DNA of 64,000 nt from contig CAZGVX010000001.1 of the NCBI GenBank assembly GCA_964529225.1, positions 74,020 through 138,019 on the forward strand, read 5' to 3'. The stretch comes from an uncultured Sphingobium sp. GTDB taxonomy: Bacteria > Pseudomonadota > Alphaproteobacteria > Sphingomonadales > Sphingomonadaceae. The notes below the pieces were generated by a model. It was not told the DNA's origin and searched no databases. It saw only the letters and a program-made list of their open reading frames with translations. How positions within the stretch are numbered: position 1 is the stretch's first letter; the number at the start of each line of letters is the position of its first letter. A program made the position numbers and the translations under genes. Of the stretch, positions 14,978 to 64,000 are shown piece after piece.

Positions 14978-15610
14978 ATGATTCGTCACGTCGTGATGAT
15001 AAAGTTCAAGAAGGACGCCGATCCCGCCAAGATCGACCTTTTCCTGGAGGAAGTCAAAAAACTTCCGCATCTCAACAGGGAAATCCGCGATTACAGCCAC
15101 GGCCTGTGCGTGAAGACGCGCTATCACAGCGGCGACTTCGACTTCGCGAACTGTTGCGATATCGACAGTTATGAGGCGATGGATCGGTACATGTCGCACT
15201 GGGGCCATCTGCGTATGACCCCCTATCTGCCTGATATTCTTGAGAACATGATCTCCTTCGACTGGGAGATCGACTATCGCGGGCCGGAATTCGACGAGGC
15301 GGAGGCGGCGCAGGAGGCCGAGAAGGAGAAGGTGCGCGTCCTTCCGGTCCATAGCGATCCGGCCAAGGCCTATGTCCCGGAAATCCGGGGTCAGGGCCGG
15401 GCCCGCGCCGTGGAAATGCTCGCGGCTGTGGGACTTGCGCTGAGCGAGGACGAGGACGAAATCATCGGCTCGGTCTGGGCGCCGGATCGCATCATGTTCG
15501 TCACGCCAGAGGTCGGCAGCGAAGTGGCCAAGGGCACCCGCGTCAAGATCGGGATCACCGGCGACTGGCTGACGGGGCCGGCCGTGCCCGACGTGGCGAC
15601 GGCCTGGTGA
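14978..15610 (+). CDS. Dabb (stress-responsive A/B barrel) domain fused to a C-terminal PASTA-like domain
   Basis: MIRHVVMIKFK...Y..H..H = Dabb; YVPEIRGQGRARAVEMLAAVGL...PEVGSEVAKGTRVKIGI fits PASTA pattern. Confidence 0.65.
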   Translation: MIRHVVMIKFKKDADPAKIDLFLEEVKKLPHLNREIRDYSHGLCVKTRYHSGDFDFANCCDIDSYEAMDRYMSHWGHLRMTPYLPDILENMISFDWEIDYRGPEFDEAEAAQEAEKEKVRVLPVHSDPAKAYVPEIRGQGRARAVEMLAAVGLALSEDEDEIIGSVWAPDRIMFVTPEVGSEVAKGTRVKIGITGDWLTGPAVPDVATAW

Positions 15611-15642
15611 CACGAATCGACTGACATAAGGAGAGACGGGAC

Positions 15643-15939
15643 ATGATCATCATCGCGGGCCAACTGAAGACCGATCCTTCCCTCGTGGAGAACCTCGCCG
15701 GGGCGCTGCGCGCCAATATTCCGGCAACGCTGCAGGAGGATGGCTGCCTGTCCTATCACTTCGCGCTGGACAGCCGCGAGGATGGCACCGTCCTCGTCTA
15801 CGAGCGGTGGCGCGATCAGGCGGCGCTCGACGCGCATCTGGCGCAGCCGGGCATCGCGGCGTTTCTCGGGCAATGGGCCGACAAGGTCGAACTGGGCGTG
15901 CGCATTTTCGACGCGGATAACGAACGCGGATTCGGCTGA
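15643..15939 (+). CDS. Antibiotic-biosynthesis/quinol monooxygenase (ABM) family protein
   Basis: EDGCLSYHF, VYERWRDQAALDAHL; RBS AAGGAG. Confidence 0.85.
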   Translation: MIIIAGQLKTDPSLVENLAGALRANIPATLQEDGCLSYHFALDSREDGTVLVYERWRDQAALDAHLAQPGIAAFLGQWADKVELGVRIFDADNERGFG

Positions 15940-15979
15940 GCCGTCAGACGAAGCTGTCAGGACAGGAAGGGTGAGAGCC

Positions 15980-17035
15980 ATGATGAACCGTCGGATCGTG
16001 CTGGCTTCGCGCCCTCATGGCATTCCCGTCGCCGAAAATTTCACGGTGGAAGATGTGCCCGTTCCCGAACTGGCCGAGGGCGAGGCGCTGCTCGAAAATC
16101 GCCTGTTCGCGATCGACCCGGCCATCCGGGGGATGCTGGACGATGTGAAGAGCTATCTGCCGCCGGTCGCCATAGGCGGACTGATCCCCGCCATGGTTCT
16201 GGGCCGGGTGGTGAAATCCCGCAATCCCGACTTCAGGGAAGGAGACTGGGGCCGGGGGTTCATGGGCTGGGAAGCCTATTCCGTCCTCAATCCGGCCAAT
16301 TTCGCGTTCGAGAAGGTCCGGGTGTCCGATGATCTGCCGCTGAGCGTCTATATGGGGGCGGTCGGCTGGTCGGGCATCACGGCTTATGTGGGGCTCAAGC
16401 GTTATGGCGAGATGCAGGCAGGCGACGACGTGCTCGTCAGCGCGGCCGCCGGCGCTGTCGGCAGCGTTGCCGGGCAGGTTGCCAGACTGTCAGGCTGCCG
16501 GGTGATCGGGACGGTGGGATCGCCGGAAAAGGCGCGAATCGTCACCGACATGCTCGGGATGGATGGCGCGATCAACTATCGCGCCACAGACGATCTCGAC
16601 GGCGAGATCGCGCGTCATTTTCCGGACGGCATCAGCCTCTATTTCGACAATGTCGGCGGCGCCACGCTGGATGCCGTGCTGCCGCGGATGAAGGCTTTCG
16701 GCTGCATTTCCGTATGCGGCATGATTGCCAACTATAATCATCAGACCGATCCCTATCGGTTGCGTAACATCTGGCAGGTGCTGGTCAACCGGATCACGAT
16801 GCGGGGGTTCCTCGCCTATGAGGCCGCCGACATGGTGCACGAGGCGGAGGATGCGCTGGCGGCGTGGGTCCGGTCCGGCGAGCTGATTGCGACCGAGAAT
16901 ATGTCGACCGGGCTTGACTCGGCGCCGGGTGCTTTCATCCGGCTGATGTCCGGCGAGACAACAGGCAAGACCCTCGTGCGGATCAATGACGCGGTGTCAA
17001 CGCTGGAAGGCTGGAAGCCCGATGTCCGTGCCTGA
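15980..17035 (+). CDS. NADP-dependent oxidoreductase (prostaglandin/alkenal-enone reductase family) 1
   Basis: NRRIVLASRP, VSAAAGAVGSVAGQ, YFDNVGG, CGMIANYN; start 15980. Confidence 0.9.
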   Translation: MMNRRIVLASRPHGIPVAENFTVEDVPVPELAEGEALLENRLFAIDPAIRGMLDDVKSYLPPVAIGGLIPAMVLGRVVKSRNPDFREGDWGRGFMGWEAYSVLNPANFAFEKVRVSDDLPLSVYMGAVGWSGITAYVGLKRYGEMQAGDDVLVSAAAGAVGSVAGQVARLSGCRVIGTVGSPEKARIVTDMLGMDGAINYRATDDLDGEIARHFPDGISLYFDNVGGATLDAVLPRMKAFGCISVCGMIANYNHQTDPYRLRNIWQVLVNRITMRGFLAYEAADMVHEAEDALAAWVRSGELIATENMSTGLDSAPGAFIRLMSGETTGKTLVRINDAVSTLEGWKPDVRA

Positions 17036-17531
17036 TGTCGATGCGCTTGACATACTGAGTGCTAAGATTCGGCTGGGCGAACTCGTGGCGGAATATGGCA
17101 GGTTGATCGACTGGCTTGACTGGGATCGGCTGGATGACGTGTTCTGGCCGGACGCGCAGTTCGATTTCGGGATGTTCAAGGGCGATCTGGCTGCATACCG
17201 GACCTTTGTGAGGGACTTGGAGGAGGGCTATGCCCGTCGCCTCCACATGTTCGCCATGCCGAGCATCCGCATTGCCGGGGACAGGGCACAGATTGACGCT
17301 GGCTCTGTGATTTTGTGCCGCACCGCCGAGCCTTTTCCCGGTATCGACAACCACTTCTGGGGGCGCTATCTCTTCACGGCCCTCCGGCGGGGTGGGTTCT
17401 GGCGTCTCTCGACGCTGACCTATGTTCTTAACCTGATCGATCTTCGGGCGCGGACAACCGATGATCGTGGCGGGCCGATGCATCTAGGCGAGGGCCTATC
17501 ACCTTATCACCCATTGGCAGGGACTTTCTAA
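17022..17531 (+). CDS. SnoaL-like/NTF2 family protein
   Basis: YGRLIDWLDWDRLDDVFWPDA, GRY...GFWR pattern. Confidence 0.75.
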   Translation: MSVPDVDALDILSAKIRLGELVAEYGRLIDWLDWDRLDDVFWPDAQFDFGMFKGDLAAYRTFVRDLEEGYARRLHMFAMPSIRIAGDRAQIDAGSVILCRTAEPFPGIDNHFWGRYLFTALRRGGFWRLSTLTYVLNLIDLRARTTDDRGGPMHLGEGLSPYHPLAGTF

Positions 17532-17583
17532 TGATCGGCTTGATGTGGATGGACCGGGTAGTCTCGTGAGCGAAGGTGTAGGC

Positions 17584-18759
17584 ATGGAGCGCGCGCTTGA
17601 GATCGCGGCGCGCGTCGAGGCGTTTGTCCGCGATGTGGTCATTCCCTATGAGCGCGATCCGCGCCGCGACCATCACGGCGGTCCGCTCGACGACATGGTC
17701 ATGGAGATGCGGGAGAAGGCGCGCGCTGCCGGTGTGCTGACCCCGCACGTGCTGCCGGATGGATCGCACCTGAGCCAGCGCGAGACAGCCGTTGTGCTCA
17801 TCCGCTCGGGCCTTTCGCCGCTCGGCCCGCTTGCCTGCAACACCATGGCACCCGATGAAGGCAACATGTATCTGCTTGGCAAGGTTGGCTCGGCGGACCT
17901 CAAGGCGCGGTTCCTGTCACCGCTCGTCGAAGGCCGCAAGCGATCCGCCTTTTTCATGACCGAGCCAGCGGAACTGGGCGGGGCGGGCTCCGACCCGTCG
18001 ATGATGATCACCACCTGTCGTCGCGACGGCAATCACTGGATCGTCAACGGCAGGAAGGCCTTCATCACCGGCGCCGAGGGCGCTGGTGTCGGGATCGTCA
18101 TGGCCAAATCCGAGGAGGCGGACAGCAAGGACGGCGCCTGCATGTTCCTCGTCGATCTGCCCGATCCGGCGATCCGCATCGACCATGTGCCCAATACCAT
18201 CGACAGCTCCATGCCCGGCGGCCACGCCACCGTGACCATCGACAATCTGCGAATCCCCGCCGATCAGATGCTGGGCGAGGCGGGCGAAGGGTTCAAATAT
18301 GCTCAGGTGCGGCTGAGCCCCGCCCGCCTGTCGCACTGCATGCGCTGGCTGGGTTGCTGCATCCGCGCCCAGGAGATCGCATCGGACTATGCCAATCGCC
18401 GCATGGCGTTCGGCAAGCAGCTGATTGACCATGAGGGTGTCGGGTTCATGCTCGCGGAAAACATGATCGAGCTGAAGCAGGCTGAACTGATGATCGACTG
18501 GTGCGCGGGGGTTCTCGACACGGGATCGCTCGGCACGGTGGAAAGCTCGATGGCCAAGGTCGCGGTGTCTGAGGCCCTGATGCGCATCGCCGACCGCTGC
18601 GTTCAGGTGATGGGTGGCACCGGCGTCACGGACAAGACAGTGGTCGAGCAGATCTTCCGCGAAGTGCGCGCGTTCCGCATCTATGACGGTCCTACCGAGG
18701 TTCACAAATGGAGCCTCGCCAAGAAGATCAAGCGCGAATGGAAGGCGACGCAAGGGTGA
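17584..18759 (+). CDS. Acyl-CoA dehydrogenase (ACAD10/11-LvaC-like)
   Basis: APDEGNM, FFMTEP..GAGSDP, RLSPARLSHCMR, FRIYDGPTEVH. Confidence 0.85.
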   Translation: MERALEIAARVEAFVRDVVIPYERDPRRDHHGGPLDDMVMEMREKARAAGVLTPHVLPDGSHLSQRETAVVLIRSGLSPLGPLACNTMAPDEGNMYLLGKVGSADLKARFLSPLVEGRKRSAFFMTEPAELGGAGSDPSMMITTCRRDGNHWIVNGRKAFITGAEGAGVGIVMAKSEEADSKDGACMFLVDLPDPAIRIDHVPNTIDSSMPGGHATVTIDNLRIPADQMLGEAGEGFKYAQVRLSPARLSHCMRWLGCCIRAQEIASDYANRRMAFGKQLIDHEGVGFMLAENMIELKQAELMIDWCAGVLDTGSLGTVESSMAKVAVSEALMRIADRCVQVMGGTGVTDKTVVEQIFREVRAFRIYDGPTEVHKWSLAKKIKREWKATQG

Positions 18760-19826
18760 GCGTCGACGCCGCCACCAATGCCGGGACAACGGCGGTGCGC
18801 GACGGGCACCGCTTTGACGAGGCCCGGCTGCATGCCTGGATGGCGGCCAATGTCGATGGCTTCGCGGGACCGATGACGGTCGAGCAGTTCAAGGGTGGGC
18901 AGTCCAATCCGACCTACAAGCTCATCACGCCTGAACGCAGCTATGTGCTGCGGCGCAAGCCGCCCGGCGAGACGCTGAAGGGCGCTCATGCGGTCGATCG
19001 CGAGGCGCAGGTGCTGACTGCCCTTGGCGGGGCGGGCTTTCCGGTCGCGCACGTTTATGGCCTGTGCGTCGACGAAGGCGTCATCGGCAGCATGTTCTAC
19101 GTCATGGCGATGGTGGAGGGGCGGATTTTCTGGGATGCGGCTCTCCCCGACGTCGCCAGGGACGAGCGCGCCGCCTACTGGTGGGCGATGAACGGGACGA
19201 TGGCGGCGCTGCACCGGCTCGATCCGGAGGCTATCGGGCTTGGCGATTATGGCCGGCCGGGCAACTACTTCGAACGGCAGATCGCGCGTTGGTCCGGGCA
19301 ATATCTGGCTGACGACGCGGCCGGGCCGGAACCGGGCATGGACCGGCTCATCGCATGGCTGCCGACCGCCATTCCACCGGGCGATGAAAGCCGGGTTGTG
19401 CATGGCGATTTCCGTATCGACAACATGATCTTTCATCCCACCGAACCGCGCATCCTCGCGGTGCTTGACTGGGAGCTGTCGACGTTGGGACATCCGCTGT
19501 CGGACTTCGCCTATCATGCGATGATGTATCGCATGCCGCCGGACATCGTCGCTGGCCTGGGCGGTGCTGACCCGGTCGCGCTCGGCATTCCGGACGAGGA
19601 CAGCTATCGCGCCGCCTATTGCGAGGCGGTGGGACGACCGCCGATGCCGGATGCCGACTACGCCTTTTACCTGACATTCAACTTCTTCCGCCTCGCGGCG
19701 ATCTTCCACGGTATCAAGGGTCGGGTGATCCGGGGGACCGCCGCGTCCGCCCATGCGCGCGAACGCGCCGAAAAGCTGCCCCAACTGGTCGCGCTCGCGC
19801 TTCGCACGATGGAAGGCTGCCGGTAA
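18756..19826 (+). CDS. APH-family phosphotransferase (ACAD10/11 kinase-LvaA-like)
   Basis: FKGGQSNPTY, VHGDFRIDN, VLDWELS; GTG overlaps ACAD stop. Confidence 0.88.
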   Translation: MSVDAATNAGTTAVRDGHRFDEARLHAWMAANVDGFAGPMTVEQFKGGQSNPTYKLITPERSYVLRRKPPGETLKGAHAVDREAQVLTALGGAGFPVAHVYGLCVDEGVIGSMFYVMAMVEGRIFWDAALPDVARDERAAYWWAMNGTMAALHRLDPEAIGLGDYGRPGNYFERQIARWSGQYLADDAAGPEPGMDRLIAWLPTAIPPGDESRVVHGDFRIDNMIFHPTEPRILAVLDWELSTLGHPLSDFAYHAMMYRMPPDIVAGLGGADPVALGIPDEDSYRAAYCEAVGRPPMPDADYAFYLTFNFFRLAAIFHGIKGRVIRGTAASAHARERAEKLPQLVALALRTMEGCR

Positions 19827-19837
19827 AGGCGCTGCGC

Positions 19838-20800
19838 ATGAAGGCCGCTTTCTATACGGAAAATGGCGGACCCGAGGTGTTGCGCTACGGCGATATGCCC
19901 GATCCGACGGTTGCTGCCGATGGCGTGCTCATCCGTGTCGAGGCCATCAGCATCGAGGGTGGGGACCTGCTCAACCGCCTCCACACACCTGTCCGCCAGT
20001 CGCCGTTCGTGCCGGGCTATCAGGCGGCCGGGACCGTCGAGGCGGTCGGGTCTGCCGTGACCCGTTTCAAGGCCGGCGACCGGGTGGTCGGCTTCAACTG
20101 GAACGGCAGCCATGCCGCGCTGTTCGCTGTTGCCGAGCATCACGCCTATGCCATCCCTGACGATCTCGAGACGGCCGCTGCGGCCACCGTGCCGGTTGCG
20201 TTCGGCACGGCCAGCGACTGCCTGTTCGAGTTCGCTCGCATGATGCCGGGTGAAACCGTGCTGGTGCAGGGTGCGGCGGGCGGGGTCGGCCTGGCGGCGG
20301 TGCAGCTTGCCGTGCAGGCGGGCGCGACGGTGATCGGGACGGCTTCAGGCGGGGAGCGGCTGGACCGACTTGCGGCCTATGGGATGCACCATGGCATTGA
20401 CCATCGCGCCGAGGACATCGCTGCACGCTGCCGGACGATTACCGGCGGCAGGGGCGCGGACATCATTCTCGATATGGCCGGGGGTCTGGCGGTCGGGGCT
20501 CTGATCGACGCGGCGCGCCCCCGCGCGCGCTATGCGGTCGTGGGGGCGGCCACCGGCACGTTGCCGCACTTCGATTTCTTTCCCCTCATCCGCAAGAGCC
20601 TGACGGTATTCGGCATTTCCTTCGGCCGCGACATGCATACCGCGCGTGCGCGCCTGCTGATCGACAGCCTGATGCGGCGGATGGCGGAGGGGCGGATCGT
20701 CATGCCGATCGACCGCGAGTTTCCTCTCTCGGAAGTGCGGGCCGCCCATGAGCATGTCGCGGACGGCCATCCCTTTGGCCGGGTGCTGATGCGCCCCTGA
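19838..20800 (+). CDS. NADPH:quinone oxidoreductase-like MDR
   Basis: GGPEVL, LVQGAAGGVGLAAVQ, GRVLMRP end. Confidence 0.88.
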   Translation: MKAAFYTENGGPEVLRYGDMPDPTVAADGVLIRVEAISIEGGDLLNRLHTPVRQSPFVPGYQAAGTVEAVGSAVTRFKAGDRVVGFNWNGSHAALFAVAEHHAYAIPDDLETAAAATVPVAFGTASDCLFEFARMMPGETVLVQGAAGGVGLAAVQLAVQAGATVIGTASGGERLDRLAAYGMHHGIDHRAEDIAARCRTITGGRGADIILDMAGGLAVGALIDAARPRARYAVVGAATGTLPHFDFFPLIRKSLTVFGISFGRDMHTARARLLIDSLMRRMAEGRIVMPIDREFPLSEVRAAHEHVADGHPFGRVLMRP

Positions 20801-20809: not shown

Positions 20810-22240
20810 TCAGGCGAACAGCGCCTCCGGCTCCTCGATCAGCGCCTTGAAGGTGGCGAGGAAGGCCGCGCCGGCTGCTCCGTCGATCGCGCGGTGATCG
20901 ACCGACAATGTAAAGGACATGCGGCTTTCGAAGGCCATGTCGCCTTCGGACGTTTCGACCGGCTGACGCATCACGGCGCCGACCGCCAGAATGGCGCCCT
21001 GTGGCGGGTTGATGATCGCATCGAAACTCTCGATGCCCATCATCCCCAGATTGGAGACGGAGAAGGTGCCGCCTGCCATGTCCTCCATGCCGAGCCGACC
21101 GGCCATTGCCTTGTCGATGAGCGCGCGGCTGGCCATGGCGAGCTGGTCGATGCGCATAAGGTCCGCCTGGCGGACGACCGGCGTGACGAGCCCCTTGGGG
21201 CTGGCGACGGCAATCGCGATATCGGCATGCGGAAACTGGTGAACCTCCTGGCCGTGAACCTGAACATTCACATCCGGATGGCGCGCCAGCGCCACTGCCG
21301 CCGCCCTGACCACATAGTCGTTGATCGTGGCCTTGCAGCCAAGCACCAGATTGGCCGTTCTGCGCAGCGCCATCAGTGCATCGACACGCGCCGAGATGCG
21401 CAGGTAGAAATGCGGTATGTCCTGCTTCGCACTGGTCAGCCGCTGGGCAACGACTTTGCGGATGCGGTCGAAGGGGACGATGGTCGGCCGGTTCTCGCCG
21501 GGGATGAAGTCCGGCGTCCCGAAAGCGCCCGGCCCGGCGACCCTGGTGGGGACGAGCGCCAGCACGTCGTTTTTGGAAATGCGTCCGCGCGGGCCTGTCC
21601 CGGCGACACCTGCCAGATTGACGCCATGCAGCGCCGCGATCCGCCGGGCGAGCGGCGAGGCGAAGATGGCGGTGTCGTCCGGCTGCATCTGGGCGACGCC
21701 GCGCAGCGCGGGCCGGGCGACTGGACGAAGCGCCTGGTCGACATCCTGATAGGTGATGCGTCCGCCTCGACCCGAACCGACGATGTCACTGATGTCGACA
21801 CCTTCCTGCTCGGCGAGCTTCAGCGCCTCCGGGCTGATCGGGCGGTTGGTGACGATTTTCGTCGGCGCTTTGGCGGGCGCGGCTGGCGCGGGCTCAGCGA
21901 CCGCGGCGGGCGCGTCGGTTCGCTTGGCAGCGACCTGCGTGTCGGCGGGCTTGAACCCGGCTATGAATGCGTCGATTTCGCCTGCATCCGTGCCGGGGGC
22001 GGCGAACACGCCGATCAAGGCGCCTACCGGCTGCGGCTCACCGCCGCCGGGGACGAGGATACGGGCCATCTCCGCATCAAATTCGGCCTCGACCTCATTG
22101 GTGATCTTGTCGGTTTCGATGAGGCACAGAAGCTGACCGCGCTTGAAGGTCTCGCCTTGCCGCACCATCCATTCCGCGACGGTGCCCTCGGTCATCTCGA
22201 TACCCCATTTGGGCATGCAGAACGGGCGTATGTCGGCCAT
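20810..22240 (-). CDS. acoC: 2-oxo-acid/acetoin dehydrogenase E2 (dihydrolipoamide acyltransferase)
   Basis: MPKWG...ETDK lipoyl domain, two PSBD repeats, catalytic DHRAIDG. Confidence 0.85.
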   Translation of the reverse strand: MADIRPFCMPKWGIEMTEGTVAEWMVRQGETFKRGQLLCLIETDKITNEVEAEFDAEMARILVPGGGEPQPVGALIGVFAAPGTDAGEIDAFIAGFKPADTQVAAKRTDAPAAVAEPAPAAPAKAPTKIVTNRPISPEALKLAEQEGVDISDIVGSGRGGRITYQDVDQALRPVARPALRGVAQMQPDDTAIFASPLARRIAALHGVNLAGVAGTGPRGRISKNDVLALVPTRVAGPGAFGTPDFIPGENRPTIVPFDRIRKVVAQRLTSAKQDIPHFYLRISARVDALMALRRTANLVLGCKATINDYVVRAAAVALARHPDVNVQVHGQEVHQFPHADIAIAVASPKGLVTPVVRQADLMRIDQLAMASRALIDKAMAGRLGMEDMAGGTFSVSNLGMMGIESFDAIINPPQGAILAVGAVMRQPVETSEGDMAFESRMSFTLSVDHRAIDGAAGAAFLATFKALIEEPEALFA

Positions 22241-22251
22241 CTTGCCCTCCC

Positions 22252-23262: not shown

Positions 23263-23279
23263 TGTCCGCGATCCTTTCG

Positions 23280-52183: not shown

Positions 52184-52223
52184 TCCCCGCGTTGCCGCGG
52201 TGCGCTGTCATTTCTCACACCGC

Positions 52224-52239
52224 CTAGCCTAAACCATAG
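52224..52239. promoter_or_regulatory. lux-box-like site (minus CTATGGTTTAGGCTAG)
   Basis: CTR-N10-YAG core upstream of Rieske 4. Confidence 0.5.
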
Positions 52240-57197: not shown

Positions 57198-59507
57198 TCA
57201 GAACTCGAGCTGCAGTTCAACGCCCCAGGTGCGGTTCGGGATACGGTCGCTGAACCAGAACGGGCCGGCATAGCTCGACCGGACGATGCGACCGCCGCCA
57301 TGGAAGGCGTCGTTGATGAAGGCCGAGATCTTGTATTCCTTCAGCGTGGCCATCCGGCCCGAGAAGGTGATCGAGGCGTCGACGGACGTGTGTGCAGGAA
57401 TGATCTCGCGACCCAGACCCTGCGGATCCTTGCTGGACTCCGTCACATATTTGTCGACGAATTTGATATTCGATCCAAGGACGAGCTGTTTGTCGTTGCC
57501 CAGATCGAACGTGTAATCACCGCCGAAACTGGCATTCCACTCCGGTGCGTAACGCAGCTGCTTGTCCGCGCTGACATCGTTGCCGCTGCCGTCGATGAAC
57601 TCCAGATACTTCGCCTCGAGATAGCCGGCCGAACCGAACAGATGCAGTTCCGGGATCGGACGGATTTGCGTTTCCAGTTCGACACCCCTGAACCGGGCCT
57701 TGCCGGCATTTTCGACGAAGGTGATCGTCGAACTCGGCAGCACGGGGTTGGACCGGATCTGGTCCTCCTGCTTGTTCTTGTAGTCGGTCTGGAACACCGT
57801 GACGTTCACGATTGCCCGGTTGTCCCAGAACTTGGTGCGCAGGCCCAGTTCATAGCTGTCCACCTGCTCCGGGTCATAGGGGCCGATGGTGTCGGGCGTG
57901 GAGCCGGGGCGACCGTTCCAGCCGCCCGAGCGAAAGCCGCGCGACCACGAGACATAGGCCATGATGTCTTCGGCGAGGGTCTGGTCGATCGACACGCGCG
58001 GCGTGAAACGGCTGAACGAAAGGCTCGGGTTGGCGCAGGGCTCGTAAGCGGAGGTGGGATCAGGGCAGAAATAGGGGCCGCCCTCCGCGACGGTGACCGC
58101 TGGCTTGTCGACGTGAAAGTCCTTGGTCTCATGGGTATAGCGCCCGCCGACCGTCAGCCGGGTGGTGGGCGTGATCTTCCAGTAGGTTTCGGCGAAGGCC
58201 GCATAGGACTTGACCTTCTGGCCGGCGCTGAAGGTGTCCACCCGGTTGGCGGGATCGCGATTGGCGTCCGCGACATATACGTCCTGACTGTCAAGCGAAT
58301 AGGTCGACTGGAAATAGTAAACGCCGGCAACAAAGTTGAACATGCCGTCAAACTCGGTGTCTATCCGCAGTTCCTGGCTGAACTGGCTGCCATGCAGGTA
58401 GCGGACCGGGTGAAAGAAGGGCGTGTTCGGTGCAATTGCGTCACCGATGTTGTCGATATCGAGCGCGTCCTGATTTTCCATGTAGCCCGTGACCGACGAA
58501 ATATTGAAGTTATCGCCCTTGTATTTCATGTTGAGCGTCACGTTGTCCGCATCGAGCGGGGCATAAAAGGGGCGGCCCCCGAACGATGCGCGAAAGCCGC
58601 TCGATTCATACTCGTCCTTGTGCGCGGAATAGCAGAGGCCGACATCGCAGGCGAGCTCACCCGGCACAGACTCATTGACCGGGTTCGGATAATGTGAGCG
58701 GTCGCGCAGATGCTCGTAGGTCACGAGGGCCTCGAAAGACTCGCTGGGCGTGAACAGCAGGCTTCCCTGAATGTCGAGCCGCTCGAGGCCGGGCTCGGCG
58801 TCGCCTGTGGTCGCGTCATAGGTGAAGCTGTTGCTGTTGATCGAGAAAATGCCGATCTTTGCGGCGAGCACGTTGGCGATGATCGGCGCGTTGAAAATGC
58901 CCTTGTAATCATTGCGACCATAGGAACCCGCCGTGACGGAAAATTTCGCGCCGAGTTCGCCGGTCGGCCGCGCGCGCTTGATATTTATGATGCCGCCAAC
59001 GGTGTTGCGTCCGAACAGCGTGCCCTGAGGCCCGCGCAGCACTTCAATCGACTCCACGTCAAACAGATCCACAAGGGCGCCGGTGTTGGACGCAAGGAAC
59101 ACGCCGTCGATCGACGTGGCGACAGCGGGCTCGAAAGACCGTTCGATATCGGCAAAGCTGATGCCGCGGATGGAGGCCGACAGGGTCGCACCCGAATATT
59201 GCACTTGGCCGAGCTGGACGTTGGGGATATATTTGGCGACCGACCGGACATCGGGCACGAACCGGCTTTCAAGCGCGGCCCCGCTGATCGCTGAAACCGC
59301 AACGGGCACGCTCTGCACGTCTTCCGTGCGCTGGCGGGCGGTCACCGTGATCTCCTCGATGCCGACCGGGGTGTCTGCGGTGTCGGCGGGCGCTTCGTCG
59401 GCCAAGGCTGGACCGGCCCACAGGCAAGTTGCGGCCAGAGCCGAGAGCTTAAGGCCGTGGAAGCGCCGCGACCGGGCGGCAAGGCGTTTGTCTGTTGTGT
59501 AGCTCAT
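57198..59507 (-). CDS. TonB-dependent receptor 2
   Basis: EEITVTARQR, EVLRGPQGTLFG, C-terminal F; start ATG 59507. Confidence 0.95.
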   Translation of the reverse strand: MSYTTDKRLAARSRRFHGLKLSALAATCLWAGPALADEAPADTADTPVGIEEITVTARQRTEDVQSVPVAVSAISGAALESRFVPDVRSVAKYIPNVQLGQVQYSGATLSASIRGISFADIERSFEPAVATSIDGVFLASNTGALVDLFDVESIEVLRGPQGTLFGRNTVGGIINIKRARPTGELGAKFSVTAGSYGRNDYKGIFNAPIIANVLAAKIGIFSINSNSFTYDATTGDAEPGLERLDIQGSLLFTPSESFEALVTYEHLRDRSHYPNPVNESVPGELACDVGLCYSAHKDEYESSGFRASFGGRPFYAPLDADNVTLNMKYKGDNFNISSVTGYMENQDALDIDNIGDAIAPNTPFFHPVRYLHGSQFSQELRIDTEFDGMFNFVAGVYYFQSTYSLDSQDVYVADANRDPANRVDTFSAGQKVKSYAAFAETYWKITPTTRLTVGGRYTHETKDFHVDKPAVTVAEGGPYFCPDPTSAYEPCANPSLSFSRFTPRVSIDQTLAEDIMAYVSWSRGFRSGGWNGRPGSTPDTIGPYDPEQVDSYELGLRTKFWDNRAIVNVTVFQTDYKNKQEDQIRSNPVLPSSTITFVENAGKARFRGVELETQIRPIPELHLFGSAGYLEAKYLEFIDGSGNDVSADKQLRYAPEWNASFGGDYTFDLGNDKQLVLGSNIKFVDKYVTESSKDPQGLGREIIPAHTSVDASITFSGRMATLKEYKISAFINDAFHGGGRIVRSSYAGPFWFSDRIPNRTWGVELQLEF

Positions 59508-59732: not shown

Positions 59733-59829
59733 GGTCGGATGCATTGGCTTTACCGTCTTGCTCGACTTGGCACAGACAACTGTGCTCCGAGTGCAACAGT
59801 TTCTCCCGATATTGGCGCAACGGTGACCG

Positions 59830-59921: not shown

Positions 59922-62267
59922 ATGGCAACGTTTCGTGCGCGGGTGGCTCTCGCATGTGTTCTTTCCACGTCCTTGACCGGCTGGGCCATGCCCGCCTGGG
60001 CGCAGGATGTCTCGTCAGGCACGGAGCAGGTCGCGGCTGAGGATTTCGGCGCGATCATCGTGACGGCTCGTCGCCGTTCGGAAACGCTCCAGTCGACCCC
60101 GGTCGCGATCACTGCGGTGAATACGGCTATGCTGGAGGCCAAGGCGGCCGTTAACATCGGCGATCTGCAGGGCGCGGCGCCGGGCCTGCTCATCACGCAG
60201 CAGAATTCGGGCGCGCAGGCGGCCAACATCTCGATCCGTGGCCTGACCTATGCCGACATCGAGAAGTCGCAGACGCCGACCGTCGGCGTCGTCGTCGACG
60301 GCGTGACGATCGGCACCAACACCGGCCAGCTGCAGGACGCATTCGACATCGAGCAGCTCGAAGTGCTGCGCGGCCCGCAGGGCACCCTCTTTGGCGCCAA
60401 CACGATCGGCGGCGTCATCAGCATCACGCGCACCAAGCCAACCAAAGACCCCGGCCTCAAGGCGGAGTTCAGCTATGGCCGGTGGAACACGTGGGCTGGC
60501 AAGGCGGTCGCCAACTATGGCGATGGCGAGAACTGGGGCGTCAAGCTGTTCTATTTCCACAATGAAACCGATGGTTTCTATCACAACGCGACACGCGACG
60601 TGAGCTCGGGCTGGAGCAAGGGCGACACCTATGGCGCCAGCTTCCTGTTCACGCCGGTCGGCACTGACCTCGAGATGCAGTTCACGATCGAGAATGTCGT
60701 GCAGAGCTTTGACCCTGTCGTGAGCAATATTGCGAACAGCACGGAGGTGTTCTGCGCCTTCGAGCCGGCGAATGAGTGCAACCGCAACACCACGACCGAT
60801 CTTTACACCGTTTTTCAGGACGAGGCGTCCAGTCACTATCACGCTCCTGACGCCACGCTTCAGTTGAACTATGATCTTGGTGCGGTGAAGCTGACGTCGA
60901 TCACTGGCTGGCGCCACAGCCGCGAGGAACAGACCCAGGATTTCGATGGTTCATCGACCGATCTTTATTATGTTGATCGTCGTCAGCATTACACGCAGTG
61001 GAGCCAGGAGCTGCGTGCGTCGGGTGATTTGATCGAGGGGCTCGACTACGTTTTGGGCGCCTACTACTTCCATTCCGAATATGATCTGACACAATGGTCG
61101 CGCGTGTTCGGCTTTGATCCGACCACTCCGCCCACGCTGTTTGACACCAACTCCCAGCATGTCGAGGGCAAGACCGAAAGCTATGCCTTCTTCGGAGATT
61201 TCAACTGGGCGGTTGTCGACAAGGTGCGCGTGTCCTTCGGTGGCCGCTTCAGCCACGACAACAAGCAGCTGTCCAATGCCTTCGCCGGTGGCAATCTGAT
61301 TGATCCCGCCGATGTGACAGCAAACCAGTTCGTCCCCGTGGGTTCGGGCAAGGCCAATTTCAGCAAATTCTCGCCCAAGGCCGGTATTGACTACCGCCCG
61401 ACCGACAACATGATGTTCTACGCGAGCTGGTCACGCGGCTATCGCTCGGGCGGGTTCAGCCCGCGCGCGGCGACCGCCGATACGGCCAGCACACCGTTCC
61501 AGCCGGAAACCGTCGACTCCTATGAGATCGGTGCCAAGCTTGCGACCGCCGATCGCCGGCTGGAGGTCAACATCGCCGGCTATGTGTCCGACTACAAGAA
61601 CATGCAGCAGAACCTGACGGTGCCCGGCGGTCCGACCGGCAACCAGACGATCACCGGCAACGTGCCGGGCGGCGCGATCATCAAGGGCATCGAGGTGGAC
61701 GGCACGTTCCGGGTCACGCCGCAATTGCGGATCACGGCCTCGGGCGCCTACATGGACTCGCACTTCCGCGATTTCGTGACCTGCGGCGCCTACGCTGCCG
61801 GGGCGGTCGCGACCAACAGTTGCGGCGCCGGACTGGTCCCGTTCGACTATTCGGCGAACAATCTCATCTACGCGCCAAAGTTCACCAGCTCGCTGAGCGC
61901 GGACTATTCGGTCCCGACCAGTTTCGGCAAGGTGAGCGCCAATGTCGGCTGGCGGCATATCAGCCCGTATGACGAGCAGCTGTCCGCCGCCTCTCTGACC
62001 ACCACGACCAACGGCGCCGGGGAGGTTACCGCGGTGACGGTGAACGGCAACGATCCGCGCGTTCGCACCACGACGCAGGATCTGGTGGACGCAAGTGTCA
62101 CCGTCGACTTTACGCTGGGCAATACCGATGCCTATTTCCGCGTATTCGGGCGTAATCTCACCAATGAAAAGACGACCACGCACGCCTTTACCGTCGCGGG
62201 TCTCTGGTCGTTCGGCATGGCGCTCGAGCCGCGCACCTATGGCGCGACGATCGGCATCAAGCTCTAA
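59922..62267 (+). CDS. TonB-dependent receptor 3
   Basis: Signal peptide, IIVTARRR, EVLRGPQGTLFG; RBS GGGGAGG. Confidence 0.95.
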   Translation: MATFRARVALACVLSTSLTGWAMPAWAQDVSSGTEQVAAEDFGAIIVTARRRSETLQSTPVAITAVNTAMLEAKAAVNIGDLQGAAPGLLITQQNSGAQAANISIRGLTYADIEKSQTPTVGVVVDGVTIGTNTGQLQDAFDIEQLEVLRGPQGTLFGANTIGGVISITRTKPTKDPGLKAEFSYGRWNTWAGKAVANYGDGENWGVKLFYFHNETDGFYHNATRDVSSGWSKGDTYGASFLFTPVGTDLEMQFTIENVVQSFDPVVSNIANSTEVFCAFEPANECNRNTTTDLYTVFQDEASSHYHAPDATLQLNYDLGAVKLTSITGWRHSREEQTQDFDGSSTDLYYVDRRQHYTQWSQELRASGDLIEGLDYVLGAYYFHSEYDLTQWSRVFGFDPTTPPTLFDTNSQHVEGKTESYAFFGDFNWAVVDKVRVSFGGRFSHDNKQLSNAFAGGNLIDPADVTANQFVPVGSGKANFSKFSPKAGIDYRPTDNMMFYASWSRGYRSGGFSPRAATADTASTPFQPETVDSYEIGAKLATADRRLEVNIAGYVSDYKNMQQNLTVPGGPTGNQTITGNVPGGAIIKGIEVDGTFRVTPQLRITASGAYMDSHFRDFVTCGAYAAGAVATNSCGAGLVPFDYSANNLIYAPKFTSSLSADYSVPTSFGKVSANVGWRHISPYDEQLSAASLTTTTNGAGEVTAVTVNGNDPRVRTTTQDLVDASVTVDFTLGNTDAYFRVFGRNLTNEKTTTHAFTVAGLWSFGMALEPRTYGATIGIKL

Positions 62268-62321: not shown

Positions 62322-62335
62322 GGAAGGGAAAGTAC

Positions 62336-63100
62336 ATGGCAAGACTGTCCGGCAAAATTGCCCTGGTGACTGGCGCAGCTTCGGTGCCGGGGCTTGGCAG
62401 CGCAACCGCCTTTCGCTTCGCCGAGGAAGGCGCAACGCTCCTCGTCACCGACCTTGACGGCGCTGGCGCCGAACGGATTGCCGCCGATATTCGCGCCAAG
62501 GGCGGCGCCGCCACCGCCATGGCGCATGACGTGACCGATACCGCGCAATGGGACGCGGTGTTCTCGGCGCTGAAGGCCGCGCACGGGCGGCTCGACGTGA
62601 TCGTCAACAATGCCGGTATCGCAATTCTGCGTGCCTATGCCGATTTTTCCGATGCGGACTGGATCAGGCAGAACGATGTCAATCTCCACAGCGTCCATTA
62701 TGGCACGCAGCGTGCCGTCAGGCTGATGCGCGAAGTGGGAGACGGCGGGTCGATCATCAACATCTCGTCGGTCGCGGGGATGATCGGTGTGCAGGGCTGT
62801 GCGGCCTATGCCGCAGCCAAGGGCGGTGTGCGCCTGTTCTCCAAGGCGGTTGCGCTCGAGTGTGCGCGCGAAAGAATCCGCGTCAACAGCGTCCATCCGG
62901 GCATGATCATGACCAATATGCAGAAGGTCGCGCTGGAGGACAATCCGGCGATCTACCAGCAGCTTTCCGACGCGATCCCGATGGGCTATTTCGGCGATCC
63001 GGTCGACATCGCGAACATGAACCTGTTCCTGGCGTCGGACGAAAGCCGCTATATCACCGGGTCGGAATTCGTCGTCGACGGCGGGCTCATCACCCAGTAG
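62336..63100 (+). CDS. SDR, 3-beta-HSD-like
   Basis: TGAASVPGLG, NNAG, YAAAK, NSVHPG. Confidence 0.88.
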   Translation: MARLSGKIALVTGAASVPGLGSATAFRFAEEGATLLVTDLDGAGAERIAADIRAKGGAATAMAHDVTDTAQWDAVFSALKAAHGRLDVIVNNAGIAILRAYADFSDADWIRQNDVNLHSVHYGTQRAVRLMREVGDGGSIINISSVAGMIGVQGCAAYAAAKGGVRLFSKAVALECARERIRVNSVHPGMIMTNMQKVALEDNPAIYQQLSDAIPMGYFGDPVDIANMNLFLASDESRYITGSEFVVDGGLITQ

Positions 63101-63893
63101 CCCGCGCCGTCCAGCGGATCGCGTTTTCCACCAGCCGGCGATAATGCGGGTTGGCATAGGTATCGGGGCCGTCGCCCGGCTGAAGGTAAACGAGGCGGCT
63201 CTCACGCACCTGCCTCGCCCAGCCAATGAGGTTGCTGCCGGGTGGGTGATGCCATCCGTCCCGGCAGTGCATACGCCCCTTGACGGCCAACTCGGCTGAC
63301 CAGAATTGCTCGGCGACGAAAGGCGCGCCCGATCGGAGCAGCGGTGTCACCTCCGCCTCGAAGATCTGTGCCAGATACAGCTCGTCGGTCAGCGTGAAGC
63401 GCGGCGGCAGGCCCGCCGTCACGGGATGGTCCGCCACCACCGACACCTCATGCGTCACATCATGGCGATAGCCGCTGTCGGGCACGTCGGTTCCGCGCAC
63501 GCGGCCAGGACGATAGAGGAACTGGCCACCAAGCCATTCGTGATAGGCTCCCCAGGCGGGCCAGCCCGCCAGGGCGTGATGCAGGGCGACGATGCCGGTG
63601 CCGTTCGCCAGCAGCGCCTCGAACCCTTCCATGAGGGCAGGGGCGGGATCGAGAAAGGCCGGGGCGTCGCCCTCAGCCTCGAAATCGAGGCCAGGCATGT
63701 CGTAGAGCACCAGCACGTCGAACCCGTGCATGCCCTCCGGGTTCATCAGGCGTGCCGCCGCCGGCTGATCGACCATGGTCGCGGCGATGCCGTCCATCGC
63801 CTGAAATATCCCGTCGAAGGCGGTGCGGTCGAACGGGTGGCCGCGCACCGCTACAAGGCACTGGATCGGCGCATGGTGGCGGATGATCGGCAT
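63090..63893 (-). CDS. ThuA-like (class I glutamine amidotransferase fold) protein
   Basis: RGHPFDR, FDVLVLYD, GIVALHHA, DELY, YLQPGD. Confidence 0.72.
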   Translation of the reverse strand: MPIIRHHAPIQCLVAVRGHPFDRTAFDGIFQAMDGIAATMVDQPAAARLMNPEGMHGFDVLVLYDMPGLDFEAEGDAPAFLDPAPALMEGFEALLANGTGIVALHHALAGWPAWGAYHEWLGGQFLYRPGRVRGTDVPDSGYRHDVTHEVSVVADHPVTAGLPPRFTLTDELYLAQIFEAEVTPLLRSGAPFVAEQFWSAELAVKGRMHCRDGWHHPPGSNLIGWARQVRESRLVYLQPGDGPDTYANPHYRRLVENAIRWTARATG

Positions 63894-63913
63894 GGCACGC
63901 GAACTCCGGCTGC

Positions 63914-64000
63914 TCAGATGCCCTTGGGCGCGTGTTGCCGGTGGATGTTGCGGAACGTCCTGCTGCTGAAATACCAGCGCCCCTCGATCTTTACGCAGGT
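63914..64000 (-). CDS. C-terminus of a probable SnoaL/NTF2 protein (begins beyond window)
   Basis: Manual translation TCVKIEGRWYFSSRTFRNIHRQHAPKGI-stop. Confidence 0.55.
   Translation of the reverse strand, partial: TCVKIEGRWYFSSRTFRNIHRQHAPKGI

Follow-up and report, generated by a model that had tools for sequence, protein, structure and literature searches.

A conserved block of oxygenase, dehydrogenase and CoA-dependent genes in Sphingomonadales is a candidate catabolic supercluster for hydrophobic non-aromatic ring compounds

We analyzed a window of 64,000 nucleotides of DNA from an uncultured Sphingobium sp. by predicting genes with a codon model and searching each gene against Pfam. 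The gene calls and Pfam matches delineate a block of ~50 kb with uptake, oxygenase, dehydrogenase and CoA-dependent genes. A preliminary description of this DNA had placed the block at 14978 to 64000; its first gene begins at 14954, and at the other end it continues for 2054 bp on metagenome contigs of the same organism. This extension encodes a VOC protein, a Rieske ferredoxin (117 aa) and a SnoaL_4 protein upstream of a ThuA-domain gene (63090-63893, -), which closes the operon that these genes begin outside the window. No protein reached a curated NCBIfam cut-off, the marginal miss being an E1 beta subunit with a subfamily match of 320.6 bits against 321 (0.4 bits short), and therefore all functional names used here are family-level.

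The left operon opens with the gene for a Dabb (stress-responsive A/B barrel; PF07876) protein (14954-15610, +), followed by genes for an ABM-type small monooxygenase-like protein (15643-15939, +; PF03992), a CurA/PTGR-type NADPH enone reductase (15971-17035, +; ADH_N_2 and ADH_zinc_N) and a SnoaL_4 (NTF2-like) protein (17022-17531, +; PF13577). An acyl-CoA dehydrogenase (ACAD; 17545-18759, +), whose closest NCBIfam model is cyclohexane-1-carbonyl-CoA dehydrogenase at a score far under the cut-off, is paired with an APH-family phosphotransferase (18738-19826, +; PF01636). This ACAD-kinase pair is kept in Sphingobium sp. TomTYG65 (79%), where the neighboring phosphotransferase is 68% identical, and it may represent a module of the 4-hydroxyacyl-CoA type. 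An MDR quinone-oxidoreductase-like reductase follows (19838-20800, +; ADH_N and ADH_zinc_N; NCBIfam PIG3 subfamily, under cut-off). On the opposite strand lie the E2 (20810-22240, -), E1 beta (22252-23262, -) and E1 alpha (23280-24266, -) genes of a PDH-like 2-oxoacid/acetoin-type dehydrogenase complex, a group that includes no E3 gene within 20810-24266. The top NCBIfam models for this complex are PDH-type, with two equivalog matches well under their cut-offs, and the E1 and E2 proteins are 70-86% identical to counterparts on plasmid pNL2 of N. aromaticivorans. Beyond this complex lie an ACAD resembling the PimC large subunit (24286-25494, -; pimC_large, 358 bits against 624), an SCP-x/lipid-transfer-type thiolase (25494-26639, -; Thiolase_C_1) and its DUF35 OB-fold partner (26636-27034, -; OB_ChsH2_C), the last two matching NCBIfam lipid-transfer protein models under cut-off.

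The central region begins with a GMC flavin oxidoreductase of the choline/alcohol dehydrogenase-like type (27172-28791, +; GMC_oxred_N and GMC_oxred_C; choline dehydrogenase, 399 bits against 605) and a LuxR-type regulator (28811-29578, -) with a weak autoinducer-binding-like domain and a GerE HTH. The regulator is 81% identical to SARO_RS18620, which corresponds to Saro_3549 (PMC12352068). The adjacent ACAD resembles the PimD small subunit (29744-30874, +; pimD_small, 231 bits against 653), is 63% identical to SARO_RS18615 and is the probable partner of the PimC-like ACAD. After an SDR (30871-31629, -) comes a KstD-family FAD-dependent ring-ketone desaturase (31641-33290, -; FAD_binding_2) with PDB matches to 7p18 (2.8e-85) and 4c3x (1.7e-59). 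Its residues Y125, Y350, Y521 and G525 align with Y119, Y318, Y487 and G491 of KstD1, so that all four catalytic residues are present in the alignment, while the NCBIfam KstD and ChcC1 models both score far under cut-off. A SnoaL_4 protein (33379-33801, -) is 70% identical to SARO_RS18565; locus-tag arithmetic points to Saro_3538, the description carried by PDB entry 3B8L, as the probable ortholog in N. aromaticivorans. A small VOC/glyoxalase-fold protein (33798-34376, -; Glyoxalase_4) precedes a Rieske oxygenase alpha subunit (34373-35692, -), which served as the anchor gene for genome comparisons. Translationally coupled to the anchor gene is another SnoaL_4 gene (35689-36246, -), and beyond it are encoded an SDR (36243-36989, -; top NCBIfam model trans-4-hydroxycyclohexanecarboxylate dehydrogenase, 212 bits against 400), a GFA-family (glutathione-dependent formaldehyde-activating-like; PF04828) protein (37001-37411, -), a CYP101-family cytochrome P450 (37408-38625, -), a fusion of two SnoaL_4 domains with a marginal Ring_hydroxyl_B match (38622-39674, -) and the TonB-dependent receptor (TBDR) that opens the central operon (39734-42043, -; Plug and barrel), with a TetR regulator divergent from it (42219-42890, +). 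The P450 carries the heme motif FGSGPHMCPG and matches CYP101D1 (2e-113) and P450cam (about 1e-101) over its full length, its closest solved relatives being CYP101D1, D2 and D5.

In the right region, a Rieske alpha subunit (42988-44328, +), an SDR (44328-45014, +) and a SnoaL_4 protein (45025-45474, +) are followed by an EthD protein (45511-45870, -), a xylose-isomerase-like TIM barrel (45867-46658, -), the AF2 model of which (pLDDT 87) is closest to the 3-dehydroshikimate dehydratase domain of 5hmq, and a further Rieske alpha subunit (46669-47871, -). Divergent from the latter is an acyl-CoA ligase (47989-49599, +), with cyclohexanecarboxylate-CoA ligase as its top NCBIfam model (383 bits against 792). 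An SMR-type small transporter (49633-49971, -), two SDRs (49968-50777, -; 50911-51672, +) and a small VOC protein (51689-52183, +) lie ahead of two adjacent Rieske alpha subunits (52339-53754, +; 53751-54935, +). Two CurA/PTGR-type enone reductases, both again of the ADH_N_2 type (55047-56063, -; 56060-57070, -), two TBDRs (57198-59507, -, 769 aa in an independent gene call; 59922-62267, +) and an SDR (62336-63100, +) complete the region.

This inventory bears out most of the preliminary description, which had listed three TBDRs, five Rieske oxygenases, one P450, KstD-like and GMC flavoenzymes, three enone reductases, six SDRs, a CoA ligase, ACADs (of which the block has three), a thiolase/DUF35 pair (25494-27034) and acoABC-like genes, the last corresponding to the PDH-like E1 and E2 genes. 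Its seven SnoaL domains become six SnoaL_4 domains in five proteins within the window, with two more directly beyond the window end. It had overlooked the PimD-like ACAD, both small VOC proteins, the APH kinase, the TetR and LuxR regulators and the GFA, EthD, TIM-barrel, SMR, ThuA, Dabb and ABM genes.

Several features raise the question of whether the block serves one pathway. All five Rieske alpha subunits carry the CxH..CxxH and E[SG]YHx4H motifs, yet they are only 23-54% identical to one another, and the three TBDRs only 28-31%. Such divergence, together with at least two regulators, would be expected of a catabolic island in which several modules, independent of one another and equipped with separate receptors, oxygenases and dehydrogenases, act on different hydrophobic substrates and are held close by shared cofactors, electron carriers or genome dynamics. 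However, two exact promoter-region repeats connect separate operons: one ties the 14954 operon (CACACCGCCTAGTCTA, 73 nt upstream of the Dabb gene) to that of the Rieske gene at 52339 (CACACCGCCTAGCCTA at 52216), and the other (TGCAACAGTTTCT) occurs at 27128, before the GMC gene at 27172, and at 59792, before the operon of the TBDR gene at 59922. Moreover, a single CoA ligase and a single ferredoxin serve the entire block. The repeats were not conserved in the other genomes searched.

Relatives of the anchor Rieske protein are encoded by 359 species genomes. In Novosphingobium, Croceicoccus, Sphingomonas, Rhizorhabdus and Erythrobacter the genes of 20810-63100 again neighbor the anchor gene, although their order is shuffled, and the set is likewise rearranged in Sphingobium. 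In Sphingobium sp. TomTYG65 the entire set, including the left module (15971-19826), occupies one stretch of ~42 kb and adjoins the valine-catabolism genes that it also adjoins in the window. The set is clustered in many genera with its order shuffled, and the grouping therefore exceeds chance. Because a KstD ortholog lies beside the anchor in only 8 of 80 loci and the P450 in only 27 of 80, these two may be accessory. The varying gene order would also suit an island of independent modules, as would plasmid pNL2, where the block is divided between two places 47 kb apart and additional TBDR/PTGR/NTF2/VOC/SDR groups are present. The three receptors, the two regulators and the pNL2 split are as compatible with multiple substrates or pathways as with a single one. 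The modules nonetheless remain together across genera despite reshuffling, and we regard a collection of independent modules as unlikely. Pure-culture RNA-seq of related Novosphingobium strains shows transcription of homologs, with one contig covering both the SnoaL and the Rieske genes. We found no paper characterizing the cluster.

With regard to substrate, the enzyme-level evidence favors reactions of cyclohexane rings that bear hydroxyl or keto groups and are carried as acids or CoA esters. Cyclohexanecarboxylate-pathway enzymes are the closest curated models for the ligase, one ACAD, the flavoenzyme and several SDRs, all far under cut-off. The pairing of PimC-like and PimD-like ACADs and the Rieske ferredoxin adjoining the block also speak for an alicyclic pathway. 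In the SnoaL_4 protein at 35689-36246, Y27, D32 and H77 align with Y30, D35 and H83 of BaiE, and LinA, BaiE and scytalone-dehydratase-like proteins rank top in a Foldseek search with its model, the pLDDT of which is only 64. The SnoaL_4 proteins thus appear closer to ring eliminases (BaiE, LinA, scytalone dehydratase) than to oxygenase beta subunits, and elimination is a candidate function. The preliminary description had favored an alicyclic ketone, enone or acid over a simple aromatic; the KstD tetrad, the full-length CYP101 match, the CurA/PTGR-type reductases, the BaiE/LinA-like NTF2 proteins, the TIM barrel and the cyclohexanecarboxylate models partly support this at the level of compound class, whereas the compounds it named (ionone, abscisic acid, a steroid) gain no specific support. 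It had also recognized no ring-cleavage dioxygenase. Indeed, two-domain extradiol dioxygenases, meta-cleavage hydrolases and hydratase-aldolases are all absent from the block, and no Pfam scan of the window revealed aromatic lower-pathway genes; small VOC proteins are nevertheless present, which look like the glyoxalase/epimerase type (the profile of that at 33798-34376 matches 3gm5 with an E-value of 2e-15 and methylmalonyl-CoA epimerases with one of 0.01). The block is not a bph/nah-type aromatic pathway.

An upper pathway for plant aromatic oligomers or polyphenols (lignin-type dimers, lignans, diarylheptanoids or flavonoids) would account for part of this inventory. In sphingomonads, the upper pathways for lignin dimers often come without ring-cleavage genes, and products would be channeled to ring-cleavage pathways encoded elsewhere. 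The Rieske enzymes and P450 would then be O-demethylases or ring hydroxylases, consistent with PDB matches of the Rieske alpha subunits to those of aromatic dioxygenases and with the hydroxylation of flavonoids by CYP101D5 (PMC9655578). The Rieske matches are of low similarity, and carnitine monooxygenase is also among the closest relatives. The GFA-family gene adjoining that of the P450 would handle released formaldehyde, the CurA-type reductases, with curcumin reductase as top model (309 bits for 15971-17035 and 336 bits for those in 55047-57070, against 440), would reduce enones in side chains, with the NTF2 proteins in an LdpA-like role, NaLdpA and SpLdpA being among the structural neighbors of the pLDDT 64 model. 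Yet a KstD-type desaturase with an intact tetrad has no obvious role on aromatic rings, nor have the PDH-like complex, the PimCD-like ACADs, the thiolase-DUF35 pair or the ACAD-kinase pair; no Rieske beta subunit lies clearly above the Pfam threshold within the block, and papers on the lignin-dimer pathways of N. aromaticivorans list none of these loci. We consider such an upper pathway unlikely.

The KstD-family enzyme, the BaiE-like NTF2 proteins, the thiolase/DUF35 pair and the heteromeric-type ACADs could alternatively play an accessory role in the degradation of steroids or bile salts, for instance by modifying side chains or rings in the sphingomonad delta-4,6 pathway. Bile salts support growth of N. 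aromaticivorans (10.1101/2021.05.19.444901), its pNL2 holds both the homologous blocks and steroid-type genes, and the EthD protein shares its domain family with the steroid dehydratase Hsh3 (PMC12175502). However, the EthD protein and the Hsh3 homolog of N. aromaticivorans share no similarity, the steroid-type genes lie ~100 kb from the homologous blocks, the block contains neither HsaA/C/D-type genes nor amidases, and the known substrates of the CYP101 family are small terpenoids. Because the Rieske proteins, including the anchor, are not KshA-like and Hsa/Tes-type genes are absent, the steroid-like substrate suggested earlier is weakened. The block is neither the 9,10-seco steroid pathway nor the Chol11 bile-salt cluster, and a steroid role is very improbable.

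For a pathway acting on alicyclic compounds, we infer the steps and their sequence from enzyme families alone. Substrates would be imported by the three TBDRs and hydroxylated at ring or methyl carbons by the P450 and the five divergent Rieske oxygenases, supplied by the ferredoxin encoded just beyond the window end; the block encodes no oxygenase reductase. The GMC enzyme and SDRs would convert alcohols to carbonyls or acids, the SnoaL_4, EthD and TIM-barrel proteins may catalyze elimination or isomerization beside carbonyls, and the KstD-type flavoenzyme and CurA/PTGR reductases would set the enone state. Following thioester formation by the CoA ligase, C-C bonds would be cleaved without a ring-cleaving dioxygenase, by the PDH-like ThDP/lipoyl complex, the thiolase-DUF35 pair and the PimCD-like heteromeric ACAD, and the ACAD-kinase pair would process a 4-hydroxyacyl-CoA product, with the operons under TetR and LuxR-type regulators. 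We put at about even (a probability of roughly 0.5) that the block forms a single modular catabolic supercluster, conserved in Sphingomonadales, for the uptake and breakdown of a single family of hydrophobic ring compounds that are not aromatic. Its substrates most likely carry or acquire a carboxyl group, with alicyclic acids and ketones of the terpenoid or norisoprenoid type, such as an acid derived from terpenoid breakdown, as candidates.

The window has a G+C content of 60-70% and abounds in shadow open reading frames (ORFs). A codon model trained on its clearest genes yielded a tight tiling of 61 genes, and independent gene calls on metagenome contigs from the same organism concur over the stretches covered. 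Every gene from 10988 to the window end was included in a Pfam scan. Measured against these gene calls and domain assignments, the inventory in the preliminary description was right in all of its kinds of protein and almost right in its counts. It had left out two small VOC proteins, members of the GFA, EthD, xylose-isomerase-like TIM-barrel, SMR, ThuA, Dabb and ABM families, an APH-type kinase whose gene overlaps an ACAD gene, and a TetR regulator. At 28811-30784, a minus-strand ORF of 657 aa masks two genes (together 28811-30874), namely a LuxR-type regulator of 255 aa on the minus strand (28811-29578; 81% identical to Saro_3549 of Novosphingobium aromaticivorans) and a third, PimD-like ACAD on the plus strand (29744-30874; 63% identical to SARO_RS18615). 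GC3 is coding-like in both frames at 28811-30874, an easy trap for an ORF-based reading of high-GC DNA.

The catabolic block, a gene set of ~50 kb, starts with its left operon at 14954, and the left boundary near 14.9 kb is real, because the same junction between valine genes and left operon occurs in Sphingobium sp. TomTYG65. Upstream are housekeeping genes (a polysaccharide exporter gene, rsmB, rpe and purH, with a heparinase II/III-like protein encoded between rpe and purH at 4300-6057), an orphan regulator of the LuxR type (7746-8483), whose autoinducer-binding domain is clear and whose gene has no luxI-type neighbor, and a LysR-controlled valine-catabolism operon (9484-14857). This operon specifies a methylmalonate-semialdehyde-type aldehyde dehydrogenase, an ACAD, an ECH_2 protein of the 3-hydroxyisobutyryl-CoA hydrolase type, an enoyl-CoA hydratase and a 3-hydroxyisobutyrate dehydrogenase; its last two genes adjoin the cluster in TomTYG65 too, where the valine genes directly precede left-operon orthologs (kinase, ACAD and enone reductase), and the remaining set comes after these. 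G+C falls from ~0.70 among the housekeeping genes at the window start to 0.60-0.68 in the block, which is compatible with horizontal acquisition. On the right, the block had been taken to end at 64000, a limit that has to be moved: contigs from the same organism add 2054 bp of further cluster genes. The ThuA gene (63090-63893) is the last of an operon encoding a VOC protein (179 aa), a Rieske ferredoxin (117 aa, carrying CxH..CxxH), a SnoaL_4 protein and ThuA, past which lies a divergent SnoaL_2 gene. Besides this ferredoxin, no electron carrier was detected that could serve the five Rieske oxygenases of the block, and neither the block nor the vicinity of the ferredoxin contains a reductase gene. 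An equivalent small Rieske protein is also encoded on pNL2, a plasmid of N. aromaticivorans DSM 12444.

Relatives of the anchor Rieske gene, which encodes an oxygenase alpha subunit (34373-35692, minus strand), are found in 359 species-level genomes, a set that does not include the window's own organism. The best 80 of these relatives are 77-87% identical and come from Novosphingobium, Croceicoccus, Sphingomonas, Rhizorhabdus, Erythrobacter and further Sphingomonadales, and the window sequence is itself present in biofilter, drinking-water, rock and estuary metagenomes. Synteny favours treating the block as a unit: orthologs of genes that lie 10-25 kb from the anchor in the window recur in other genomes, reordered, within 10 kb of it. 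In Sphingomonas echinoides the order is SDR, TonB-dependent receptor (TBDR), enone reductase, three SDRs, CoA ligase, Rieske, Rieske, SnoaL, three SDRs, Rieske, regulator/ACAD, DUF35, thiolase and ACAD. The overlapping ACAD and APH-family kinase genes at 17545-19826 also occur as a pair in N. resinovorum, Blastomonas and Sphingobium TomTYG65.

Nearly every gene between 20810 and 63893 has a collinear ortholog on pNL2, with amino-acid identities of 55-86% (81% for the LuxR-type Saro_3549). The homologous regions of the plasmid, at ~72-96 kb and 143-178 kb (the second corresponding to about Saro_3527-3561 by tag arithmetic), are 47 kb apart, whereas the block in the window is undivided; pNL2 additionally carries alpha/beta hydrolases, more Rieske genes and a different FAD oxidoreductase that replaces the KstD ortholog, and its set has a megaplasmid location, unlike the window block with its housekeeping neighbors. 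The literature yielded no published function for these pNL2 regions. At 38-74 kb and 262-311 kb the plasmid holds further groups of TBDR, enone reductase, NTF2 (the fold of SnoaL_4 proteins), VOC, SDR and Rieske genes together with a separate steroid-type region, and the whole gives pNL2 the look of a plasmid devoted to hydrophobic ring compounds.

Two pairs of exact repeats connect promoter regions of different operons within the block. One, TGCAACAGTTTCT, occurs at 27128-27140 and 59792-59804, upstream of 27172 and 59922; the other, CACACCGCCTAG(Y)CTA, precedes 14954 and 52339, with the pair 14881-14896 / 52216-52231 reading CACACCGCCTAGYCTA. Each pair is embedded in a longer similar stretch, and the repeats may be regulator sites. 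Among 82 related loci they are not conserved, so that they provide local evidence only for co-regulation, and no perfect palindrome is shared between the intergenic regions. A homologous locus is covered by RNA-seq contigs of related Novosphingobium strains grown in pure culture, and one contig spans SnoaL and Rieske genes, a pair whose transcription was seen against the locus of N. resinovorum VKM B-1172 (8524-12311 of that locus). The RNA-seq contig of one strain omits ~570 bp at the junction of the Rieske and second SnoaL genes, an indication that the small VOC gene located there is missing from that strain. With the divided arrangement on pNL2 on one side and the recurrent neighborhoods of the anchor on the other, we regard it as rather unlikely that the block is an island of several independent modules and not one pathway.

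The flavoenzyme encoded at 31641-33290 matches 7p18 (2.8e-85) and, over residues 7-542, 4c3x (1.7e-59), as well as Pfam PF00890 (1.8e-76). In the 4c3x alignment, with a 20-residue tag allowed for, its Y125, Y350, Y521 and G525 align with Tyr119, Tyr318, Tyr487 and Gly491 of KstD1, the catalytic residues that Rohman et al. are said to have described in 2013. By its sequence the protein is a true member of the KstD family with all four catalytic residues in place; it scores below equivalog level, with 432 bits against a cut-off of 789 for the NCBIfam KstD model and 412 against 1000 for ChcC1. The P450 (37408-38625) is matched over its full length by CYP101D1 (2.3e-113), CYP101D2 (2.7e-112), CYP101D5 (2.2e-111) and P450cam (~1e-101) and contains the heme-thiolate motif FGSGPHMCPG. 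Known substrates of CYP101 enzymes are camphor and ionones and, for CYP101D5, flavonoids as well (PMC9655578). The five Rieske alpha subunits are 23-54% identical among themselves, and the solved structures closest to them, mainly over the N-terminal half, are carnitine monooxygenase and the alpha subunits of aromatic dioxygenases.

The presence of a KstD-family enzyme raises the prospect of an accessory role in steroid degradation, which we consider very unlikely. KshA is absent from the PDB matches of two window Rieske proteins, and a window Rieske protein matches a KshA-like protein of pNL2 with E = 0.005 in the Rieske domain only. None of the Pfam families of HsaAB/TesA, HsaC/TesB or HsaD/TesD is found in any gene of 14954-64000; Hsa/Tes-type families (flavin monooxygenase, extradiol dioxygenase and hydrolase) occur elsewhere on pNL2. 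The steroid-type genes of that plasmid are at 276-298 kb, far from both homologous regions, and include genes for a flavin monooxygenase, KshA-like Rieske proteins, a VOC protein of 306 aa and the Hsh3 homolog WP_011906908, to which the EthD protein of the window has no similarity. Comparison of the window with the KshA-like and Hsh3-like proteins of pNL2 and with the papers on Chol11, progesterone and Hsh3 produced family-level matches at most. A sphingomonad system of similar composition is cluster 2 for bile-salt side-chain degradation of Sphingobium sp. Chol11 (SclA, Scd4AB, the Rieske protein Nov2c228 and amidases), whose cleavage mechanism is also unexplained and which shares with the window a CoA ligase, a heteromeric ACAD, a Rieske protein, SDRs, a thiolase-superfamily pair and a TBDR. 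The Chol11 cluster is defined, however, by KshA-homologous Rieske proteins and amidases, and the window has neither; it is therefore a different system. Leads to tomatine and estrogen degradation, from plasmid matches in Sphingobium TomTYG65 and Novosphingobium ES2-1, were dropped: the corresponding papers omit this gene set.

An upper pathway for aromatic oligomers or polyphenols would also employ oxygenases of the kinds seen here, with aromatic dioxygenases among the structural matches of the Rieske proteins and flavonoids among the substrates of the P450 family. The ring-cleavage dioxygenase that the preliminary description had failed to recognise is not found by Pfam either, which detects no two-domain extradiol type and only single-module VOC proteins, and the scan of the block returned no meta-cleavage hydrolase, hydratase-aldolase or alpha/beta hydrolase. 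PF00866, the beta-subunit family, is the main family of no block gene; its single, marginal match (27.7 bits against a cut-off of 27) is in a double-NTF2 protein. We judge an aromatic upper pathway of this sort to be unlikely.

The NTF2 proteins bear on what follows oxygenation. In the family coupled to the anchor (35689-36246), the invariant residues Tyr27, Asp32 and His77 correspond in alignment to catalytic Tyr30, Asp35 and His83 of BaiE, the bile-acid 7-alpha-dehydratase, in a weak sequence match with E-values of only ~1e-3; by sequence, beta subunits and dehydratases are matched equally weakly. When a structural model (pLDDT 64) was ranked by fold, 4gb5 (function unassigned) came first, followed by LinA, BaiE and scytalone-dehydratase-like structures, with a Rieske beta subunit in 32nd place, a ranking from a model of this confidence that does not support a reading of the SnoaL proteins as Rieske beta subunits. 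LinA, BaiE and scytalone dehydratase all take water or HCl from six-membered alicyclic rings. Among the fold matches is a structure labelled Saro_3538 (PDB 3B8L), without assigned function, and, judging by locus-tag arithmetic, the NTF2 protein at 33379-33801 probably has its ortholog in Saro_3538. For the TIM-barrel protein (model pLDDT 87), the closest structure is the 3-dehydroshikimate dehydratase domain of 5hmq, which we take to be QuiC1, followed by inosose and ketose isomerases or epimerases. The small VOC proteins (single-module, 164-192 aa) are closest to a glyoxalase-like structure and, weakly, to methylmalonyl-CoA epimerases.

By their NCBIfam matches, the three ADH_N_2 reductases are closest to curcumin reductase and leukotriene B4 12-hydroxydehydrogenase. 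The ACADs at 24286-25494 and 29744-30874 are closest to pimeloyl-CoA dehydrogenase, the first to its large and the second to its small subunit, and may thus form a heteromeric enzyme. The ACAD-kinase pair at 17545-19826 is presumably akin to the systems that process 4-hydroxyacyl-CoAs in bacteria (Lva) and mammals (ACAD10/11). Genes previously called acoABC-like do not bear out that label: the best NCBIfam models for the E1ab/E2 proteins are PDH-type, and AcoC reaches 92 bits against 307 in the lipoyl part only. Both PDH-type equivalog matches are well below cut-off, and "PDH-like E1ab/E2 without E3" would be the safer name than AcoABC. No protein reaches a curated NCBIfam cut-off; E1 beta comes closest, its subfamily match (320.6 bits against 321) falling 0.4 bits short.

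The nearest NCBIfam models for five window proteins come from two routes for cyclohexanecarboxylate. In the Chc route, the substrate is aromatised by a P450 hydroxylase, the dehydrogenase ChcB1 and the KstD-like desaturases ChcC1/ChcC2; the Ali/Bad route is CoA-dependent. Cyclohexanecarboxylate models are nearest for the CoA ligase, the ACAD at 17545 and the SDR at 36243, second-best after KstD for the flavoenzyme, and listed at lower rank for two further SDRs. With scores that reach at most about half of the curated cut-offs, the window proteins are not orthologs of the Chc or Ali/Bad enzymes. What the systems have in common is a logic and its enzyme families, namely P450 hydroxylation, SDR oxidation, KstD-type cyclohexane desaturation, a CoA ligase and ACADs; beyond these, the window has five Rieske oxygenases, the NTF2/EthD/TIM-barrel proteins, enone reductases, the PDH-like complex and TBDRs. 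The central operon, which starts with the receptor at 39734-42043 (minus strand), encodes in order the receptor, a double NTF2 protein, the P450, GFA, SDR, NTF2, Rieske, VOC and NTF2 proteins, the KstD-type enzyme and an SDR, an order in which we see a parallel to the Chc pathway with its "hydroxylate, oxidise, desaturate" logic.

With the camphor (cam) pathway and CYP101 enzymes, whose substrate is a small bicyclic or monocyclic terpenoid ketone, the window shares a CYP101-family P450, an MDR/SDR dehydrogenase and a CoA ligase, but it has no putidaredoxin or reductase. The Pfam scan found no amidase in the block. Nor did the block contain a Baeyer-Villiger or luciferase-like monooxygenase; ring opening must differ from that of the cam pathway. 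By description, the window's combination of CoA ligase, Rieske oxygenase, SCP-x-type thiolase and DUF35 protein is also that of the dit (abietane diterpenoid) and ipf (ibuprofen) clusters; the Rieske dioxygenases of those two are of the alpha/beta type and act on an aromatic ring, and dit has an extradiol dioxygenase as well.

The sequence shows that the enzyme families are there, with key residues preserved, and that the genes stay grouped; from these observations we infer every step of a pathway, the order of the steps and the substrate. TBDRs would import the substrate, the P450 and the ferredoxin-fed Rieske enzymes would insert oxygen, and the GMC enzyme and SDRs would oxidise the resulting alcohols. 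NTF2, EthD and TIM-barrel proteins may then eliminate or isomerise, the KstD-type enzyme and enone reductases could tune the enone state, and the CoA ligase would make the CoA ester. The PDH-like complex and the thiolase-DUF35 pair would break carbon-carbon bonds, ahead of steps resembling beta-oxidation. We put the probability that the substrate belongs to a family of alicyclic acids or ketones (terpenoid, norisoprenoid or naphthenic-type) at about 0.5. A bolder and speculative proposal, which we think unlikely to hold, is that the block represents a widespread, undescribed means of opening substituted alicyclic rings without ring-cleaving dioxygenases or Baeyer-Villiger enzymes. Several orphan hydroxylases of the Rieske and P450 types, together with SDRs and with eliminases (NTF2, EthD and TIM-barrel proteins), would build an alpha-ketol or beta-dicarbonyl on the ring, which the PDH-like ThDP/lipoyl complex and the thiolase-DUF35 pair would cleave directly to CoA thioesters; substrates might include carboxyl-rich alicyclic compounds derived from terpenoids or carotenoids, which are common in fresh water and soil.

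No paper characterising this gene set was found in the literature, and a match of its homologs to an already characterised pathway, which would have spoken against the original proposal, was found neither there nor among the NCBIfam models, whose cut-offs are unmet. The sole direct mention is that of the LuxR-type ortholog Saro_3549 in a DAP-seq survey (PMC12352068), whose public run for this regulator is SRR32559713; a search for Saro_35xx and Saro_37xx tags returned nothing beyond this entry. The literature on ABA, ionone, geosmin and MIB offered no gene-level work. Public RNA-seq of Novosphingobium sp. P6W (PRJNA529223) includes ABA, fructose and starvation conditions, and no P6W record is among the matches of the anchor Rieske in the plasmid collection.

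All of the enzyme families were already known; what they form is an orphan supercluster for catabolism, worth experimental effort because it is so broadly conserved and has five orphan Rieske oxygenases. N. aromaticivorans DSM 12444, which has the orthologs and can be manipulated genetically, allows a direct test. Knowing the substrate would annotate thousands of database proteins now labelled "hypothetical", "SnoaL-like" or "ring-hydroxylating dioxygenase subunit alpha", could yield new C-H-activating biocatalysts, and could account for how plant-signal compounds, or terpenoid compounds of taste and odour, are removed. Much recalcitrant organic matter in water, soil, plant roots and drinking-water filters is consumed by sphingomonads, and a set of ~50 kb with at least five Rieske oxygenases, conserved as a group in hundreds of species, would represent a large share of carbon turnover.
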